Positions 13,475 to 27,803 of a DNA stretch of 27,803 nucleotides are shown here, piece after piece (the stretch's first letter is position 1; every line of letters starts with the position of its first letter). Source of the DNA: a virus (Duplodnaviria > Heunggongvirae > Uroviricota > Caudoviricetes). The stretch lies in the IMG/VR virus record IMGVR_UViG_2531839664_000018; one strand, 5' to 3'. The notes below the pieces were generated by a model that worked only from the letters and a program-made list of their open reading frames with translations, ran no database searches and was not told where the DNA came from. Made by a program: the position numbers and the translations under genes.

Positions 13475-13630
13475 TTACTTCTCAGATTCGTAGTCTACGA
13501 AGACAGCGACCTCCGTCTGGCCGGTTCGGATTCGTACCTCGCAGAGGTCTTTCCTCGTTACCAGTGCCGTCACTATGACGGTTAAACAGATGACAATCAG
13601 GGCGATTAACATCGCCTTTTGCTGCTTCAT
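13475..13630 (-). CDS. hok: Hok/Gef-family type I toxin (51 aa)
   Basis: MKQQKAMLIALIVICLTVIVTALVTRKDLCEVRIRTGQTEVAVFVDYESEK with AAGGAG RBS; stable 9-bp stem with GAAA loop (13446-13467) 8 nt after stop. Confidence 0.8.
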   Translation of the reverse strand: MKQQKAMLIALIVICLTVIVTALVTRKDLCEVRIRTGQTEVAVFVDYESEK

Positions 13631-13875
13631 AGCCTGCTTCTCCTTGCCTTTCGGCACGTAAGAGGCTAACCTACATGAGCAAAGCATGAAATTGGCCTCA
13701 GATTAATGTTAAGCGTCTTGCCGGACGCGTAATGTTAACTGGGGCTTTTCTCTGTCTGCCTTACGGTGGCATGCCCGAGGCAGACAGCCTCAAGCACCCG
13801 CAGCAATTCTACTTAACTCTGCCGTTACAGCAAACCGTTTTCGCCCGATATGGGAATTCCCATATCGTAATGAAT

Positions 13876-15199: not shown

Positions 15200-15874
15200 A
15201 TGAATTCCCAGACAAAAAAAGATATTCCCTGCTTCCGTTCTTATTTGCCTGATGCTCTGCGTTTAAGATTTGAAGATAAACTGACCATCCGGGCCATCGC
15301 TCAGCGTCTAGGTCTCAGTCATTCCACAATACATACGCTTTTTCAGCGATTTATTGCATCCGGTATCGCATGGCCATTGCCCGATTCAGTTTCATTAGCT
15401 CAGCTTGATGCCATCCTTTATGCCAACAGAAAGAAGGAATTAACAGAGCCTCAAATCAGCGAAGGCACATGGCGAAAAGAACGGCGAGCCAGCTACAGCC
15501 GTGAATTTAAGGTCCGTCTGGCTAAGCAGGCATTACAGCCCGGTGCTGTTGTTGCCCGGATCGCCAGAGAGCACGGTATCAATGATAACCTGCTGTTTAA
15601 ATGGAAAAGCCAGTACGAGGACGGCTTACTGAGCGATGATGACATACAGGAATGCATGCCTGTCCCGGTGGCTCTGACTGATACGCCAGAGCCGACCAGA
15701 CCAGTTACAAATCCCTTCTGGCGTAACAAGCCTGATGAGTGCCCTGAGAGTGATCCCGGAAACGTCCCACGGTGCGAGCTGCATCTTAAATCAGGTGTGG
15801 TAAAACTGTTTGACCCTCTCACTCCGGAAATGTTACGGGCGCTAATCCGCGAAATGAAAGGAGGTACCCGATGA
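15200..15874 (+). CDS. IS66-family TnpA (accessory HTH protein); start codon uncertain
   Basis: Contains REFKVRLAKQALQPGAVVARIAREHGINDNLLFKWKSQY HTH motif typical of IS66 orf1; ORF-track start at 15143 is GTG, first ATG at 15200. Confidence 0.6.
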   Translation: MNSQTKKDIPCFRSYLPDALRLRFEDKLTIRAIAQRLGLSHSTIHTLFQRFIASGIAWPLPDSVSLAQLDAILYANRKKELTEPQISEGTWRKERRASYSREFKVRLAKQALQPGAVVARIAREHGINDNLLFKWKSQYEDGLLSDDDIQECMPVPVALTDTPEPTRPVTNPFWRNKPDECPESDPGNVPRCELHLKSGVVKLFDPLTPEMLRALIREMKGGTR

Positions 15875-16218
15875 TAACGCTGCCAACCGGTACCAGAATC
15901 TGGATCATCGCTGGCATCACAGATATGCGTTGTGGCTTCAACGGCCTGGCTTCGAAGGTGCAGAACACGCTGAAAGATGACCCGTTCTCCGGGCATATCT
16001 TCGTCTTCCGGGGCCGCAGTGGCAAAATGGTGAAAATACTGTGGGCCGATCGTGACGGGTTATGCCTGTTCGCCAAACGCCTGGAACGGGGCCGCTTCGT
16101 CTGGCCGGTAACCCGGGAAGGGAAAGTGCACCTGACGCCAGCTCAGTTATCCATGCTACTGGAGGGGATCGCGTGGCAACATCCCAAACGGACAGAACGG
16201 CCTGGCATCCGGATATAA
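15871..16218 (+). CDS. IS66-family TnpB
   Basis: 115 aa MITLPTGTRIWIIAGITDMRCGFNGLA...; ATG overlaps tnpA stop (ATGA), GGAGG RBS. Confidence 0.85.
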   Translation: MITLPTGTRIWIIAGITDMRCGFNGLASKVQNTLKDDPFSGHIFVFRGRSGKMVKILWADRDGLCLFAKRLERGRFVWPVTREGKVHLTPAQLSMLLEGIAWQHPKRTERPGIRI

Positions 16219-16237
16219 CCCGTGATAAAACAGGGGA

Positions 16238-17794
16238 ATGAACAACACACTCCCCGACGACATCGAGCAACTGAAGGCCCTGCTGATCGCACAGCAGGCT
16301 GTTATCGTCCGTCTGTCTGGTGAAATAACCGGCTATGCCCGCGAGATCAGCTCACTCAGAGCGCTGGTCGCTAAACTGCAGAGAATGTTGTTCGGTCGCA
16401 GCAGCGAGAAAAGCCGCGAGAAGACAGAAAAGAAGATCGCACGGGCAGAAACGCGTATAACCGAGCTCCAGAACAGGCTTGGTGAGGCGCAGTTGCAACT
16501 CACCTCAATGGCCGGAGAGACAGCGCCGAAAACATCAGACTCTCCCGTCCGCAAAGCACTTCCGGCAACACTTCCCCGTGACAGGCAGGTTATCTCCCCG
16601 GCAGAAACCGAATGCCCCGTCTGCAGCGGCAAACTGAAACCGCTGGGAGAAAGCATCTCTGAACAACTGGATATCATCAACACCGCGTTCAGGGTAATCG
16701 AAACGGTTCGCCCAAAACTGGCCTGCAGCCGGTGCGACTGTATAGTTCAGGCTCCGCAGCCACCAAAACCCATCGAGCGCAGTTACGCCAGTCCGGCTCT
16801 GCTGGCCCGCATAATCATGGCTAAGTTCGCCGAGCATCTGCCGCTGTACCGTCAGTCGGAAATCTATGCCCGCCAGGGCGTGGAGCTGCACCGCAATACG
16901 ATGGGGCGCTGGGTTGACATCATGGGAGAGCAGCTTCGCCCGCTGTATGATGAACTGAAGCACTATGTGCTGATGGCGGGTAAAGTGCATGCCGGTGACA
17001 CGCCGGTAAATGTACTGGAGCCGGGTCAGGGTAAAACCCGTACCGGACGGCTGTGGGTCTATGTTCGTGACGATCGCAACGCCGGTTCGACCATGCCGGC
17101 AGCGGTGTGGTTCTCATACTCTCCCGACCGCAAAGGCATCCACCCACAGCAACATCTGGCGGACTACAGAGGTATCCTGCAGGCCGATGCATATGCGGGT
17201 TACAATGCTCTTTACGAAAGCGGTCAGGTAACCGAAGCGGCTTGTATGGCACATGCCCGACGCAAGATCCACGATGTACATGTCCGCCATCCAACGACAG
17301 TAACGGGAGAAGCGCTCCGTCGTATCGGGGAACTGTACGCTATCGAGGCTGAGATCCGCGGCAGTCCGGCAGAAGAGCGACTGGCGGTCAGAAAAGCCAG
17401 AACGGTACCGCTAATGCAGTCGTTGTATGAGTGGCTCCAGGGGCAGATGAGCACGCTGTCGCGCCACTCGGATACAGCGAAAGCGTTCACCTATCTGCTG
17501 AAGCAATGGGACGCTCTGAACGAATACTGCCGCAATGGCTGGGTGGAGATCGACAATAACCTGTGTGAAAACGCCCTCCGGGTAGTTGCACTGGGGCGGC
17601 GTAACTACATGTTCTTCGGCTCTGATGGTGGAGGCGAGAGTGCGGCAGTGATGTACAGCCTGATCGGTAGCTGCAAACTTAACGGAATCGAGCCGGAAAC
17701 GTGGCTACGCCACGTGATCAGTGTAATCAACACCTGGCCTGCCAACCGCGTGAAAGAGTTGTTGCCCTGGAATGTCACTCAATCTGTAAACTAA
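16238..17794 (+). CDS. IS66-family transposase TnpC
   Basis: 518 aa with N-terminal coiled-coil region, CxxC...CxxC zinc motif and DDE-type core; characteristic IS66 family length. Confidence 0.85.
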
Positions 17795-21188: not shown

Positions 21189-21380
21189 ATGAATAGAGCC
21201 CTTTCACCAATGGTTTCTGAATTTGAAACCATTGAACAAGAAAACAGTTACAACGAATGGCTGCGTGCGAAAGTAGCAACGAGCCTTGCAGATCCGCGCC
21301 CAGCAATTCCCCATGACGAAGTTGAGCGCAGAATGGCAGAACGCTTTGCTAAGATGCGCAAGGAACGGAGCAAGCAGTAA
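21189..21380 (+). CDS. Small antitoxin (PaaA-like) partnered with ParE-family toxin
   Basis: 63 aa MNRALSPMVSEFETIEQENSYNEWLRAKVATSLADPRPAIPHDEVERRMAERFAKMRKERSKQ; GGAGG RBS; stop 1 nt before toxin ATG. Confidence 0.6.
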   Translation: MNRALSPMVSEFETIEQENSYNEWLRAKVATSLADPRPAIPHDEVERRMAERFAKMRKERSKQ

Positions 21381-21381
21381 A

Positions 21382-21660
21382 ATGTTACCCGTGTTATGGC
21401 TTGAAAGCGCAGATACCGACCTAGATGATATAACTAGTTATATTGCTCGTTTCGACATAGATGCGGCTGAACGCTTATGGCAGCGATTAAGGGGTTGTGT
21501 GCTGCCGTTATCCGAACATCCGTATTTATACCCACCAAGCGACAGAGTACCTGGCTTGCGTGAGATTGTAGCCCACCCTAACTATATAATTCTATACCGC
21601 GTAACAACATCAAGCGTTGAAGTAGTAAACGTGATCCACGCAAGACGCCAGTTTCCCTAA
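21382..21660 (+). CDS. parE: ParE/RelE-superfamily toxin
   Basis: 92 aa MLPVLWLESADTDLDDITSYIARFDIDAAERLWQRLRGCVLPLSEHPYLYPPSDRVPGLREIVAHPNYIILYRVTTSSVEVVNVIHARRQFP: ParE-type motif pattern. Confidence 0.75.
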   Translation: MLPVLWLESADTDLDDITSYIARFDIDAAERLWQRLRGCVLPLSEHPYLYPPSDRVPGLREIVAHPNYIILYRVTTSSVEVVNVIHARRQFP

Positions 21661-21745: not shown

Positions 21746-22090
21746 TGACTTAAGTTTAATGTTTATTAAACTAAAAATACCAACCCACCCCGCCCCACAG
21801 AACGCAGGGAAATACTTCGAGTTACCCGGCAGTGGTCAGGGGTTAAGTAGCCAGCCCGAGGCGTATGAACATGACGGCAGGGTTCAACTTTAATAACTAT
21901 GCAGCAGGTTTTTGTTCCGCTACCCCGGCGTTAAGGGGAAACAGAGGGTTTCTCAGTGGGCGAAGTCAAACATCAGAATGGAAGGCATCCCGGGATCGGC
22001 AAAGAAGCAGCAATGGCGCTTTATATTGACATCAGCGCCATTGCAGGACAGGTAAGAGTTATCAGAGCGGTAACTAAGCGGTATGCGCCT

Positions 22091-22291
22091 TTACTTCAGA
22101 AAGTCTCTGGTGAGTGCACCGAAGATATTGTCAACGATTTCGTCATCGAACTGCGAGGACTCATCTTCAGTTACAAGGTGACCACAATTTTTGCAGATGG
22201 CTCCCGCGAAACTGTCAGAGCCCTGCGGCTTAAAGGATGTGTCAAAGACTTCGCCACCACATTCTGGGCAAGAAAACTTGATTGTATTCAT
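22091..22291 (-). CDS. Small zinc-ribbon protein (66 aa) on the strand opposite to the flanking operon
   Basis: MNTIKFSCPECGGEVFDTSFKPQGSDSFAGAICKNCGHLVTEDESSQFDDEIVDNIFGALTRDFLK; paired CxxC motifs 18 residues apart; GAGAGGAAA RBS. Preferred over the overlapping plus-strand 118-aa ORF. Confidence 0.45.
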   Translation of the reverse strand: MNTIKFSCPECGGEVFDTSFKPQGSDSFAGAICKNCGHLVTEDESSQFDDEIVDNIFGALTRDFLK

Positions 22292-23024
22292 AACCAATTT
22301 CCTCTCGAGTAACAGCCCCCTCAGAGGATACCACCTCGCCTGACGTGGTTAAAAGCAGGCTGAAAATCTGTCCGCTCTGGAGCAGGATATCACCAGGCTG
22401 GAAAAAGCAGCGGCATTAAGCATTGCCAGAATGATTACATACCCGCGTTAATAGCTAACCAACGAAGCTAAGGTTGGTAATTAAGGAGTTCTCCACGGGT
22501 GAGGTGGAGTGCGTGCGCCGGACACGGGTGAGCATACGGCACTGACAGTTTACTGAAAGGATATTTCCCTGAAAAGTCAGACCATAACGCGAAAGCGCAC
22601 GGCGAGGTAGCTGGTTCATAGATAGCCTGTCGTTAAATTTTCGTCGACCGTGCGCTTCCGGTTGTGGCAATCCGCGAAATGGCGCGGCGGTAAGTATGGA
22701 GGGGTTATTCCTTCCCCCGTTGAGGACACCGGGTTGTCAGGTTGACCATACGCTTAAGTGACAACCCCGCTGCAACGCCCTCTGTTATCAATTTTCTGGT
22801 GACGTTTGGCGGTATCAGTTTTACTCCGTGACTGGTCTGCCGCCCTTTTTAAAGTGAGTTTTGTGATGCGGTGAATGCGGCTGAGCGCACGCGGAACAGT
22901 TAAAACCAAAAACAGTGTTATGGGTGGGTTCTCTGTATCCGGCGTTAATTGTTAACTGGTTAACGTCACCTGGAGGCACCAGGCACCGCATCAACAAAGT
23001 TCATTTGTAAAAATGGAGATAATT

Positions 23025-23246
23025 ATGATTGCTCATCACTTCGGAACTGATGAGATTCCTCGTCAGTGCGTGACTCCCGGTGATTATGTTATTCATAAAG
23101 GAAGAACATATATTGCTTCGGTAAACAACATTAAAAAACAACGGCTCTATATTCGTGATTTTTCCACACAACACTGTATTAAGGAAACCATGATTAAAGT
23201 CTTCCTTGGTCGTGATGGTTTACCTGTAAAAGCAGAGTCATGGTGA
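23025..23246 (+). CDS. Kil-like small protein (KilR-family, putative host cell-division inhibitor)
   Basis: 73 aa from ATG 23025 (GGAG RBS): [46 protein letters not shown]...[14 protein letters not shown]; size and position upstream of the exonuclease match Rac kilR as recalled. Confidence 0.5.
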
Positions 23247-23369
23247 GCAGTAATAAAATAACTGCCACAATACGACATTCAGCTTAATGAATACATCAGA
23301 TTTGATTCTTATATGCCAGCAATGGCAGGGATTTGTTCATCCTTAAATCTGTCATGAGGTTAAAACAAA

Positions 23370-25841
23370 ATGAGTAAAGTCTTTATTTGCGCCGCCATTC
23401 CGGACGAACAGGCAATAAAGGAAGAAGGTGCAGTTGCTGTAGCCACTGCCATTGAAGCCGGTGACGAACGCCGCGCCCGTGCCAAATTTACCTGGCAATT
23501 CCTGGAGCAATATCCGGCTGCTCAGGACTGCGCTTATAAATTTCTTATCTGCGAGGATAAACCCGGCATGCCCCGCCCTGCTATCGACTCCTGGGATACC
23601 GAATATATGCAGGAAAACCGCTGGGATGAGGAATCCGCTTCCTTTATTCCGGTCGAACCAGAATCCGAACCGATGAACGTCAATTTTGACAAACTGTCCC
23701 TTGAAGTACAGAACGCTGTCATGGTTAAGTTCGACACATGTGAAAACATCACCGTTGATATGGTGATTAGCGCGCAGGAATTGTTGCAGGAAGACATGGC
23801 AACATTCGACGGACATATCGTTGAAGCGTTGATGAAAATGCCAGAAGTTAACGCCATGTATCCGGAGCTTAAGCTGCATGCCATCGGGTGGGTTAAGCAT
23901 AAATGTAAGCCTGGTGCCAAATGGCCCGAAATTCAGGCAGAGATGCGCATCTGGAAAAAACGTCGCGAAGGTGAACGCAAGGAAACCGGAAAATACACGT
24001 CTGTTGTTGATCTCGCCCGCGCCAGAGCCAATCAACAGAACACTGAAAATTCAACAGGAAAAATCAGCCCGGTCATTGCTGCCACTCATCGCGAATACAA
24101 GCAGACATGGAAAACACTGGATGACGAACTGGCCTACGCTCTCTGGCCTGGTGATGTGGATGCCGGAAACATTGACGGCAGCATCCATCGCTGGGCAAAA
24201 AAAGAAGTTATCGACAACGACCGCGAAGACTGGAAGCGTATCTCGGCATCAATGCGCAAACAGCCTGATGCCCTTCGCTACGACCGCCAGACTATTTTTG
24301 GCCTTGTCCGTGAACGTCCGATCGACATTCACAAAGATCCTGTGGCACTGAACAAATACATTACTGAATACCTGACTACAAAGGGCGTGTTTGAAGATGA
24401 AGGAAGAAATCAGAGCGCAACTGATACTCTCTCGTCGCCAGTACCAGAAACTGATGCAGTGGAAACGGCAATTCCGGACAACGAAAAAACCGAATGCAAA
24501 GTGGAAGTCGAACCATCTGTAGAGCGTGAAGGGCCGTTCTACTTCCTCTTCACCGACAAGGATAGCGAAAAATACGGTCGCGCAAACAAACTTTCTGGTC
24601 TGGATAAGGCACTGGCTGCAGGGGCTACTGAAATCACGAAAGAAGAATATTTCGCCCGAAAAAATGGCACATACACAGGCTTACCGCAAAATGCAAATAC
24701 CGCACAAAATTCTGAACAACCAGAACCGGTAAAAGTTACCGCTGACGAAGTAAAGAAAATTATGCAGGCAGCCAATATCAGCCAGCCTGACGCCAATCAG
24801 TTGCTCGCCGCATCACGTGGTGAATTTGTTGCAGGGATTAGCGACCCGAATGATCCGAAATGGGTGAAGGGGATTGAAACCCGCGATTCTGTGAACCAGA
24901 ACCAGCAAGAAACGGAACAGAACGACCAGAAAGCGGAACAAAACAGCCCAAATACGCAACAAAACGAGCCAGAAACGAAACTACCTGAACCAGTAGTGCA
25001 ACAGGAAGTGGAAAAAGTCTGCACCGCCTGCGGTCAGACCGGCGGCGGCAACTGCCCTGATTGTGGCGCGGTGATGGGCGACGCTACATACCAGGAAACA
25101 TTCGATGAAGAGTATCAGGTTGAAGTTCAGGAAGATGATCCGGAGGAAATGGAAGGCGCTGAACATCCACACAAGGAGAACACTGGCGGCAATCAGCATC
25201 ACGATAGCGATAATGAAACTGGCGAGACGGCAGATCACCCAATTAAGGTGAACGGTCATCAAGAAATCACATCCACCAGCAGGACGTGTGACCATCTAAT
25301 GATCGACCTTGAAACCATGGGAAAAAATCCTGATGCCCCGATCATCTCAATAGGTGCAATATTTTTCGATCCGCAAACCGGAGATATGGGACCGGAATTT
25401 AGTAAGACTATCGATCTGGAAACTGCTGGCGGAGTCATTGATCGGGACACCATTAAATGGTGGCTTAAGCAATCACGCGAAGCGCAATCTGCCATTATGA
25501 CCGATGAAATCCCGTTAGATGATGCACTGTTACAATTGCGGGAATTTATCGACGAAAACTCCGGTGAATTTTTTGTTCAGGTCTGGGGAAATGGAGCCAA
25601 CTTCGACAACACGATTTTGCGCCGTTCATACGAACGGCAGGGGATCCCCTGCCCGTGGCGTTACTACAACGATCGCGATGTACGCACAATCGTTGAGCTG
25701 GGGAAAGCCATAGACTTCGATGCCAGAACGGCTATTCCATTCGAAGGTGAGCGCCATAATGCACTTGATGACGCCCGTTACCAGGCAAAATACGTTTCAG
25801 TTATCTGGCAAAAACTGATCCCGAGTCAGGCTGATTTTTAA
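23370..25841 (+). CDS. Large prophage exonuclease (823 aa) with C-terminal DEDDh (DnaQ-like) 3'-5' exonuclease domain
   Basis: C-terminal motifs MIDLETMG (Exo I), WGNGANFD (Exo II), HNALDDARYQ (Exo III); central Q/E-rich low-complexity region and zinc ribbon CTACGQTGGGNCPDCGA; segment LLAASRGEFVAGISDPNDPKWVKGIETRD recalls RecE-like proteins. Confidence 0.8.
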   Translation: MSKVFICAAIPDEQAIKEEGAVAVATAIEAGDERRARAKFTWQFLEQYPAAQDCAYKFLICEDKPGMPRPAIDSWDTEYMQENRWDEESASFIPVEPESEPMNVNFDKLSLEVQNAVMVKFDTCENITVDMVISAQELLQEDMATFDGHIVEALMKMPEVNAMYPELKLHAIGWVKHKCKPGAKWPEIQAEMRIWKKRREGERKETGKYTSVVDLARARANQQNTENSTGKISPVIAATHREYKQTWKTLDDELAYALWPGDVDAGNIDGSIHRWAKKEVIDNDREDWKRISASMRKQPDALRYDRQTIFGLVRERPIDIHKDPVALNKYITEYLTTKGVFEDEGRNQSATDTLSSPVPETDAVETAIPDNEKTECKVEVEPSVEREGPFYFLFTDKDSEKYGRANKLSGLDKALAAGATEITKEEYFARKNGTYTGLPQNANTAQNSEQPEPVKVTADEVKKIMQAANISQPDANQLLAASRGEFVAGISDPNDPKWVKGIETRDSVNQNQQETEQNDQKAEQNSPNTQQNEPETKLPEPVVQQEVEKVCTACGQTGGGNCPDCGAVMGDATYQETFDEEYQVEVQEDDPEEMEGAEHPHKENTGGNQHHDSDNETGETADHPIKVNGHQEITSTSRTCDHLMIDLETMGKNPDAPIISIGAIFFDPQTGDMGPEFSKTIDLETAGGVIDRDTIKWWLKQSREAQSAIMTDEIPLDDALLQLREFIDENSGEFFVQVWGNGANFDNTILRRSYERQGIPCPWRYYNDRDVRTIVELGKAIDFDARTAIPFEGERHNALDDARYQAKYVSVIWQKLIPSQADF

Positions 25842-25902
25842 TGTTCAACCGTCGCCAGTTGTCGTTGGTATTCTGCAACTGGCGCGTTCCGGAGTGATAG
25901 CC

Positions 25903-26172
25903 ATGAGCGAACAGTACCTGATAACGCTCGATGAGTGGAAGCCAAAACGGTTCAGTCTCCCAATAACAAACACTACCCTGGTGAAATACGGAAAACTAGG
26001 ATACATCGTTCCAAGACCACAAAAAATTCGTGGGCGTTGGCTGATAGATCGCCGAGCAGTATTTGTTGGACCTGGTGAAACAGGAATTGCGCCGGAAATT
26101 CATACTGGCGATGATGATGCACTGAAGGAGATTTTAACTCATGTCACCGAGGCCACGAAAAAACAGCACTGA
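25903..26172 (+). CDS. Putative excisionase-like protein
   Basis: 89 aa from ATG 25903 (GGAG RBS); 3' end overlaps the integrase start by 32 nt; identity by position and size only. Confidence 0.45.
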   Translation: MSEQYLITLDEWKPKRFSLPITNTTLVKYGKLGYIVPRPQKIRGRWLIDRRAVFVGPGETGIAPEIHTGDDDALKEILTHVTEATKKQH

Positions 26173-27259
26173 CGTAGCCGGACTTTACGAAAAATTTGAT
26201 CGCAGAACTGGCAGAGTTTACTACCAGTATAAAAACCCTGTGACTGGAAAATTTCACGGGCTCGGAACAGACAAAGGTAAGGCAGAAAAAATCGCTTCCA
26301 CAGCCAATCAGCGAATAGCTGCAGCAGAGGCTGAATATTTCATGCGCAAAATTGATGAAAGTCCGTCAGCAACAAAGCGTCGGGGTATCAGATTAAAGGC
26401 ATGGGTTGATCGATATCTGAAAATACAGGACACGCGACTGAAAAATGGAGATATTGCAGCTACAACTCACAAAGAAAAAGCCCGAATGGCTGCATACCTG
26501 GTTTCCCGTCTGGGAAACCACCCATTGAAAGAACTGGAAGTAAGAGACTTTGCATTAATACTGGATGAGTGGCTGGATAAAGACATGGTCAGCACAGCGA
26601 GAGTAAATCGTGGATTATGGGTTGATATTTATAAAGAAGCACAGCATGCAGGGGAAGTTCCTCCTGGATGGAATCCTCCGGAGGCTACCCGTAAACCGAT
26701 CCCTAAAGTAACTAGAGCCAGGCTCACCCTGGAAGACTGGCAAAAAATTTACAACGCAACGCCTGAAAAACACTTTATCCGTAACGCAATGCTTCTTGCG
26801 ATTGTTACTGGTCAGCGCCGTGATGACATTTGCCACATGCGTTTTTCAGATGTGTGGAACGAACACTTGCATATCACCCAGGGAAAAACCGGAATGCGTC
26901 TGGCGTTACCGCTTACACTACGCTGTGATGCCATTGGGATAACGTTAAAAGAAGTTATTGATGGGTGCCGAGACAGAATATTAAGTCCATATCTAATCCA
27001 TAGTCGGCACCAGAAACAACCAAAGCCGATGAGTAAAGACAACCTGAGCGACTACTTTGCCAAAGCACGGGATCTGGCTGGGATAACTCCACCAGCAGGA
27101 AAAACTCCGCCAACATTTCATGAACAACGCTCCCTGTCAGAACGACTGTACCGCACGCAGGGTATTGATACAAAAACATTACTGGGACATAAAGTCCAGG
27201 CAACCACCGATCGTTATAACGATACTCGTGGTCAGGAATGGGTTAAATTGGTTGTTTGA
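26141..27259 (+). CDS. int: Phage integrase, tyrosine recombinase family
   Basis: 372 aa; C-terminal catalytic region with conserved R (TGQRRDD), HxxR (HEQR) and Y near the end (TDRYNDTRGQEW); N-terminal arm-binding-like domain. Confidence 0.9.
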   Translation: MSPRPRKNSTDVAGLYEKFDRRTGRVYYQYKNPVTGKFHGLGTDKGKAEKIASTANQRIAAAEAEYFMRKIDESPSATKRRGIRLKAWVDRYLKIQDTRLKNGDIAATTHKEKARMAAYLVSRLGNHPLKELEVRDFALILDEWLDKDMVSTARVNRGLWVDIYKEAQHAGEVPPGWNPPEATRKPIPKVTRARLTLEDWQKIYNATPEKHFIRNAMLLAIVTGQRRDDICHMRFSDVWNEHLHITQGKTGMRLALPLTLRCDAIGITLKEVIDGCRDRILSPYLIHSRHQKQPKPMSKDNLSDYFAKARDLAGITPPAGKTPPTFHEQRSLSERLYRTQGIDTKTLLGHKVQATTDRYNDTRGQEWVKLVV

Positions 27260-27335: not shown

Positions 27336-27803
27336 CTAATCTTGATCAGGTTCCTGCTTAGAATAATGTTTTCCAACAATAAATGCCGTAACCAATGCAA
27401 CAAGATCTATTGAAACGAGAGTTCCGGCAAGAACTGTCTCCCCCATGACGCCAAAGACAGTGGCAGCTAAGATGATCAATATTGCCAACCAAAAAGCCTT
27501 TGTTTGACCATCTCTGGCAATATCAATGCTATCAGCCACTGTTTTATGGCGATGAGCCTGCTCTTTTTCGGTCAACTCAACAAGTCGATTTGCAAGCCCA
27601 GGCACCAGTTGATCATACTTTTTAAGCATTGAAGGTGGCGGAACAGGCCCCTGAAAATGCTGGCAAACAATAGCCCGCACCTGCGGACTATCCAAAACCC
27701 TGTTTAAGACCTCTGGATTTTCGATTACTCGAGAAACCAGTTCATTATCCTTTTGTTCTTCACAAGTGAGTTTGGTGTTCTCACTTTCTTTTTGATCTGG
27801 CAT
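27336..27803 (-). CDS. Membrane-anchored hypothetical protein (DUF2335-like); start at or beyond window edge
   Basis: 155-aa ORF beginning at the last window base; C-terminal TM segments AFWLAILIILAATVFGVMG and LVSIDLVALVTAFIVG; probably outside the prophage. Confidence 0.5.
   Translation of the reverse strand: MPDQKESENTKLTCEEQKDNELVSRVIENPEVLNRVLDSPQVRAIVCQHFQGPVPPPSMLKKYDQLVPGLANRLVELTEKEQAHRHKTVADSIDIARDGQTKAFWLAILIILAATVFGVMGETVLAGTLVSIDLVALVTAFIVGKHYSKQEPDQD

Follow-up and report, generated by a model that had tools for sequence, protein, structure and literature searches.

A YdfE-family prophage protein predicted to combine a RecE-type scaffold with a DEDDh 3'-5' exonuclease domain, encoded without a neighbouring annealase gene

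The gene described here lies in a 27,803-nucleotide stretch of viral DNA (IMG/VR record IMGVR_UViG_2531839664_000018, referred to below as the window) and encodes an 823-residue exonuclease of the YdfE family, situated between the cell division inhibitor gene kil and the excisionase and integrase genes (xis and int) of a lambdoid prophage of Escherichia coli. The protein is identical to RefSeq WP_000048560.1, which carries the name ‘exonuclease’ from the Prokaryotic Genome Annotation Pipeline (PGAP), and it is matched along its full length by the PHROGs family phrog_2082 (‘exonuclease’). An open reading frame (ORF) of 823 codons with a profile match at E = 2e-67 is far beyond what chance produces, and chance is excluded as its source. 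RefSeq, Pfam and PHROGs already contain the sequence, the DEDDh domain and the YdfE-type N-terminus, and the gene itself is ordinary and widespread. What is added here is the point at which the protein departs from RecE, its identity as ydfE, the absence of an annealase gene as a rule of the family, and the pattern of three effectors carried by one N-terminal module. Literature searches found no functional study of YdfE, or of the architecture in which a DEDDh domain is borne by a RecE scaffold.

The C-terminal part of the protein is matched by the Rv2179c-like 3'-5' exonuclease family (PF16473), which scores 226.5 bits (cut-off 27; E = 2.3e-67) over residues 642-813, an alignment that takes in positions 2-177 of the 177-position profile; on the same stretch there is a weak match to RNase_T (PF00929). 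The Exo I (D646-L-E648), Exo II (N-F-D746) and Exo III (H796-N-A-L-D-D801) motifs are all present, and in an alignment with T4 DexA and a Yersinia phage homologue the residues D646, E648, D746, H796 and D801 correspond to DexA D7, E9, D119, H186 and D191. The first-pass annotation, made from the DNA letters and their translations, had proposed an 823-residue exonuclease with a DnaQ-type DEDDh domain and Exo I/II/III motifs in the C-terminal ~190 residues, and both proposals hold, with all five catalytic residues in place. By sequence, the domain is assigned to the DEDDh superfamily with its two-metal catalytic pentad intact, and the profile searches gave this family in place of the PD-(D/E)xK fold of RecE and lambda Exo. 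In the search for solved relatives by sequence, the DexA structures 8kel and 8ken were the only matches (E = 1.5e-6), while the Rv2179c structure gave no match at E<=1. Homology to these DexA structures suggests an RNase H-like fold for residues 641-823. DexA belongs to the same PF16473 subfamily and is also phage-encoded, but it shares only 28% identity with the window domain, and is a stand-alone protein of 227 residues from a virulent phage, with extra loops.

The region that precedes this domain resembles RecE, the exonuclease of the E. coli Rac prophage. BLASTP aligns residues 262-627 with residues 278-592 of K-12 Rac RecE (40% identity overall, E = 1e-60), the similarity being strongest from about residue 470 onwards and taking in a zinc ribbon and an acidic linker. 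The NCBIfam equivalog model for exodeoxyribonuclease VIII (NF007259) reaches 275.8 bits, against a cut-off of 1269, and matches with its positions 260-600 alone, on residues 237-623. The homology ends at RecE residue 592, 13 residues short of the nuclease domain (residues 605-866, 3h4r), which is the only portion of RecE that has been crystallised, and at the DNA level the similarity to Rac recE ends near codon 618. The PD-(D/E)xK nuclease of RecE itself was not found: there is no BLASTP alignment past RecE residue 592, and tblastn with RecE 601-866 gave no match in the window. Because the RecE homology stops just before the RecE nuclease, with a DEDDh domain in its place, the catalytic domain appears to have been swapped, and the protein is best described, as far as its sequence tells, as a RecE-type scaffold with an exchanged catalytic domain.

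The relationship to RecE thus involves a shared body and different ends. RecE, which has RecT as its partner in Rac, is likewise more than 800 residues long and encoded in the early-left operon downstream of kil, and the homologous part is its residues 278-592, zinc ribbon and acidic linker included. By contrast, its nuclease is of the PD-(D/E)xK type and acts 5'-3', whereas that of the window protein is a DEDDh nuclease predicted from sequence to act 3'-5'; the recT partner gene that accompanies recE is lacking downstream of the window gene; and its N-terminus belongs to PF06630, whereas the first 260 residues of the window protein are of the YdfE type.

Over residues 1-256, the protein has 93% identity to the product of the K-12 pseudogene ydfE in the Qin prophage, which is interrupted by the insertion sequence (IS) IS2 after about residue 256, the remainder of the protein being gone there. 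The neighbours of K-12 ydfE are the same (dicF and dicB or kil upstream, int downstream), and the window gene may be read with confidence as the intact form of K-12 ydfE. Two Pfam families, both recent (PF27430, ‘YdfE_N’, and PF27432), lie in the N-terminal region of homologues with at least 89% identity, these being precomputed assignments read from the close homologues. Between the N-terminal module and the nuclease domain, a linker rich in Q, N and E (residues 481-545; 26% Q+N, 18% D+E) is followed by the zinc ribbon (residues 551-565) and then by a second, strongly acidic linker (residues 576-640; 29% D+E). This agrees with the earlier description of a long N-terminal region with an acidic Q/E-rich linker and a zinc ribbon, both in composition and in the four cysteines C551, C554, C562 and C565. 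The ratio of nonsynonymous to synonymous substitution rates (dN/dS) is 0.13-0.21 for residues 1-260 and 0.15-0.27 for the DEDDh domain, compared with 0.44-0.63 in the low-complexity linker. Both the N-terminal and the DEDDh domains are under purifying selection, with dN/dS well under 1.

No partner annealase gene accompanies the exonuclease gene. From its stop codon at 25841 to the start of the excisionase ORF (25894 or 25903) there are 52-61 nt, depending on the start chosen, and int begins at 26141; because of the size of this gap, no gene fits between the exonuclease and xis. The PGAP annotation of the whole prophage contains no RecT, Beta, Erf or Rad52 protein, and tblastn with six recombination proteins gave no match in the window. 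The comparison was extended to 80 prophage loci from IMG/VR whose DEDDh domain has 99-100% identity, making 81 loci with the window. In tblastn searches with RecT, Beta, Erf, two Rad52-like proteins, a divergent RecT, lambda Exo, Gam, Abc2 and the RecE nuclease, none of the 81 gave a match. An excisionase-type ORF starts 49-75 nt past the exonuclease stop in 78 of the 79 loci with downstream sequence, and this spacing is kept across three unrelated xis/int modules and across both types of N-terminus, YdfE-type (54 loci) and RecE-type (25 loci). Gene order is also the same (dicB or kil, exonuclease, xis, int) in mEp460 and Evi, two phages that form plaques, with no annealase annotated within the stretches examined. 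The missing annealase is a rule of the family, and not a peculiarity of the window copy. The first-pass annotation had noted that no RecT/Beta-like annealase lies between the gene and xis-int, and the gap and the searches confirm this; nor is an annealase encoded just outside the annotated ORFs, here or in the 80 related loci. The layout of the two-component recombinases (lambda Exo-Beta, RecE-RecT) is not seen, as the nuclease is of the DEDDh type, with xis downstream and kil upstream. The earlier suggestion that the protein may not act as a classical recombineering exonuclease is supported by the lack of an exonuclease-annealase pair.

A related arrangement occurs in Yersinia phage YeP1, where the stand-alone DEDDh exonuclease QCW23376.1 has 55% identity to residues 641-823. 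Its gene, too, is the final early one ahead of an excisionase-like gene and int, and its operon has no recognisable annealase; the protein differs in being only 190 residues long, without a RecE/YdfE-type N-terminal extension. Other products of the YeP1 operon (L006 903-1811) include an RdgC-family protein (Pfam E = 5e-38) and an HD hydrolase.

The exchange of catalytic domains is not confined to this one pair. An exhaustive HMMER search of 1.84 billion cluster representatives gave 11,771 relatives at E<=0.001, and the module combinations were read from the long ones among these after segments of the query and of RecE had been mapped on them. Three kinds of C-terminus were found on the same N-terminal and middle modules: the DEDDh domain, the RecE-type PD-(D/E)xK nuclease and a domain of ~250 residues. 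For example, P0243 joins RecE's own N-terminus (100% identity over RecE 1-260) to a DEDDh domain 99% identical to that of the window, while the PD-(D/E)xK form includes P0256, which matches Pfam DUF3799, and P0276, with a C-terminus 89% identical to that of RecE. The ~250-residue domain, previously unassigned, is present in P0254, P0263, P0271, P0294 and P0330. Four of these five match Pfam Rad52_Rad22 slightly under threshold, and PF04098 is precomputed on four stand-alone homologues of the domain. A profile built from 75 sequences has human RAD52 as its nine best Protein Data Bank (PDB) matches (E = 0.011-0.08, over the fold core), although a five-sequence profile gave no PDB match. It is concluded that this third C-terminus is a predicted Rad52-fold annealase.

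Each of the three forms has its own downstream neighbour. Directly after the PD-(D/E)xK form comes a RecT-family gene, in Rac as well as in the loci L094 and L095, which have the YdfE-type module; after the Rad52-fold form comes a Gp157-family gene, in 10 of 10 loci; and after the DEDDh form comes xis. Between the window gene and its counterpart in Evi (L004 9371-11851), synonymous divergence (dS) reaches about 1.1 in the DEDDh domain but only 0.14 in the N-terminal one, and this sharp difference between domains of the same gene pair suggests intragenic exchange of the nuclease module between lineages. The RecE homology of residues 262-627, the identity with ydfE, the commonness of the arrangement and the retention of partners by the sister architectures are all points that the first-pass annotation had missed.

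The arrangement is common in E. coli. A 3.2-kb query spanning kil, the exonuclease and xis has a match in 4804 of 5426 complete E. coli genomes, and a match covering at least 80% of the query in 3038 of them, with a median of 2 and a maximum of 10 matching places per genome (8 in the strain that carries the window). Broken copies include that of K-12 Qin, interrupted by IS2, and that of strain 2014C-3599, interrupted by IS600; decay occurs, but it is not the rule.

Taken together, a modular protein of the early-left operon is proposed, with a YdfE/RecE-type body and a DexA/Rv2179c-type DEDDh domain, which would act alone without an annealase, and this reading is held with moderate confidence. 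On prophage induction, the gene would be transcribed from the repressor-controlled leftward promoter together with dicF and kil. The protein may then work by itself on oligonucleotides or the 3' ends of DNA, as a 3'-5' exonuclease that depends on Mg2+, and T4 DexA, its nearest solved and characterised relative, works on DNA. Its role would be to trim ends or to scavenge DNA, like that of T4 DexA, and not to supply RecT or Beta by 5'-3' resection. The N-terminal module probably targets or scaffolds interchangeable effectors to one cellular site common to the three architectures.

Several observations weigh against this proposal. In Pfam and at NCBI, the domain goes by the name of exoribonuclease. 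The 80 loci used for comparison are near relatives within E. coli, and not independent samples. The K-12 RecT tblastn search overlooked the divergent RecT genes of L094 and L095 that Pfam found; because tblastn can miss divergent annealases in this way, the case for their absence rests mainly on the gene spacing (49-75 nt) and on the PGAP annotation. The host genome contains other lambdoid prophages (the 8 matching places), which could be a source of a partner in trans. Lastly, the AlphaFold2 model of residues 1-480, built from a shallow, Escherichia-only alignment, is poor, with a mean predicted local distance difference test (pLDDT) score of 46 and only residues 101-200 better, and because of this low score it could not serve for a fold search.

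The protein could still be a recombination exonuclease, partnered by RecA/RecFOR of the host or by an annealase that another prophage provides in trans, its RecE-like N-terminal part placing it at DNA ends or forks. The gene takes the place that recET has in its operon, homology to RecE extends over residues 262-627, the N-terminal module is elsewhere fused to a RecE-type nuclease or a Rad52-fold annealase, and E. coli genomes contain multiple prophage copies from which a partner might come. This is nevertheless considered unlikely. A 3'-5' exonuclease gives 5' overhangs, whereas RecA and the known exonuclease-annealase systems use 3' tails; the contact with RecT is held by the RecE nuclease domain, which is absent here; and none of the 81 loci gave a partner in cis, which both other architectures invariably have. 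Given that the sister architectures keep their recombination partners, some link with recombination stays plausible, but the classical exonuclease-plus-annealase mechanism does not. That the gene is merely the functionless, decaying remnant of a recE in a defective prophage is highly improbable. The prophage is IS-riddled, with a truncated portal gene, and copies are broken in K-12 Qin (IS2) and 2014C-3599 (IS600), but the frame is intact, the catalytic pentad is complete, dN/dS is well under 1 in both structured domains, the gene is intact in the plaque-forming mEp460 and Evi, and 3038 complete genomes retain at least 80% of the query. The pseudogene reading was rejected on the basis of dN/dS and of the presence of the gene in these two viable phages.

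Two further explanations follow from what is known of other members of the nuclease family. The E. coli DexA-family DEDDh protein EcD (‘HREX’) is reported to protect E. coli from T4 when plasmid-borne, and to digest the DNA of T4 while leaving unmodified DNA undigested (Kang et al. 2025, PMC12153337), and the window protein might similarly be a prophage exclusion nuclease directed against the 5-hydroxymethylcytosine (5hmC) DNA of superinfecting T-even phages. Its domain is a DexA homologue with conserved catalytic residues, and the gene has been kept intact in a heavily decayed prophage. However, the DexA residues reported to read 5hmC are not conserved (W152 is replaced by Y766, and D169 by A780), whereas the tetramer residue D90, absent from EcD, is retained as D718, these placements coming from a three-sequence alignment at 28% identity in which the position of D169 is uncertain. 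The gene also has no promoter-like site of its own and appears to lie in a repressed early operon, and PADLOC gives only a generic Cas-associated DEDDh match, with no support for a known defence system. EcD differs further in being short and stand-alone, beginning MIDTET (a start known from the cloning primers), its defence role comes from plasmid expression only, and the literature search on HREX found only the original paper. An exclusion role is considered improbable, and an equally low probability is given to the domain acting on RNA or short oligonucleotides, in the turnover of mRNA or small RNAs (sRNAs) or in the removal of nucleotide-based immune signals. The latter is suggested by the Pfam family name, taken from the Mycobacterium tuberculosis exoribonuclease Rv2179c, by the name ‘3'-5' exoribonuclease’ that NCBI gives to many members, and by the report that the oligoribonuclease Rexo2 is the closest structural homologue of DexA (Kang et al. 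2025, PMC12153337). Against it, the sole relative solved by sequence is the DNA exonuclease DexA, with Rv2179c unmatched at E<=1, the scaffold is common to DNA recombination proteins, and the NCBI names are carried over from the family name and not from experiments.

The coordinates of the gene, its parts and its neighbours are collected in Table 1. The region from 23000 to 26200, used as the 3.2-kb query, is 100% identical to E. coli O121:H19 chromosomes (e.g. RM8352), and the element, which adjoins potC, belongs to E. coli O121:H19 and is a lambdoid prophage of Rac/Qin-like type, now defective. On the + strand, the order is a RacR-like regulator, RelB/RelE-ParE, ydfC and dicB remnants, DicF, kil, exonuclease, xis and int. 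The early-left operon is a Qin/Rac hybrid, with DicF lying between the ydfC/dicB remnants and the Rac-type kil. No sigma-70-like promoter was found in 22300-26200, which fits a presumed transcription of the gene as the tail of a repressor-controlled early operon. Decay of the prophage is evident from two copies of IS3, copies of IS600, an IS66 element (tnpA, tnpB, tnpC) and the truncated portal gene; the exonuclease, kil, xis and int genes are intact within it.

Table 1. Positions of the exonuclease gene, its predicted parts and neighbouring features in the window
Feature	Coordinates	Strand	Evidence and remarks
YdfE-family exonuclease, whole gene	23370..25841	+	ATG start, 823 residues; PGAP annotation; ORF call
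N-terminal YdfE-type module, residues 1-260	23370..24149	+	Identity to K-12 ydfE; PF27430 YdfE_N and PF27432 on close homologues
RecE-homologous middle region and linkers, residues 262-627	24153..25250	+	BLASTP against K-12 RecE; NCBIfam exoVIII
Predicted zinc ribbon, C551-x2-C554 ... C562-x2-C565	25020..25064	+	Counterpart in RecE C519...C533
Predicted DEDDh 3'-5' exonuclease domain, residues 642-813	25293..25808	+	PF16473; T4 DexA 8kel/8ken
DicF sRNA, upstream, same rightward early operon	22794..22845	+	Rfam RF00039, 74.2 bits against a gathering score of 48
kil, FtsZ inhibitor gene, directly upstream	23025..23246	+	81% identical to Rac KilR; annotation
xis, excisionase gene	25903..26172	+	Pfam Exc; annotation
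int, integrase gene, prophage end next to potC	26141..27259	+	ORF; annotation
Decayed parts of the prophage	15200-17794 and 1 to about 4720 (also L007)		IS insertions, truncated portal

Other features of the prophage were recorded in passing. A RelB antitoxin (21189-21380) and a RelE/ParE toxin (21382-21660), both on the + strand, are encoded between the RacR-like regulator and kil. A 68-residue double-CxxC zinc-ribbon protein (22091-22297, - strand), named ‘ECs_2282 family putative zinc-binding protein’ by PGAP, is encoded antisense to the early-left operon, and its ORF overlaps an unannotated + strand ORF of 118 residues (21956-22312). In the late region, near the Q antiterminator gene, the AgvB (anti-GcvB) sRNA (7415-7476, + strand) and the STnc100 sRNA (7477-7666, - strand) lie back to back, both scoring well over their Rfam gathering thresholds, and a hok/sok-type locus of toxin and antisense RNA is present on the - strand at 13475-13630 and 13625-13799 (sok, Rfam 114 bits). 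A gene for a DUF2335 membrane protein and a small ORF lie between int and potC (27336-27803, - strand, and L001 24337-24985), and these may be cargo or the flank of the attachment site.

Phage records and databases often label such proteins ‘exodeoxyribonuclease VIII’, which implies a RecE-like 5'-3' recombineering nuclease and is wrong for the catalytic domain. Correcting the label is useful for the annotation of prophages in pathogenic E. coli, in which several copies may occur per genome, and for searches for recombineering systems. The occurrence of three C-termini on one module also offers a way into the unexplained first 600 residues of RecE, since the binding partner of the module should be common to all three. 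A broader and more tentative reading, possible but rather doubtful at present, is that the YdfE/RecE-type N-terminal module is a general delivery platform of enterobacterial lambdoid prophages with three interchangeable DNA-end effectors, the DEDDh version being an unrecognised single-component function and not a degenerate RecE. If this reading were true, the DEDDh version might trim 3' tails to steer or block host RecA/RecBCD, or might counter host defence.

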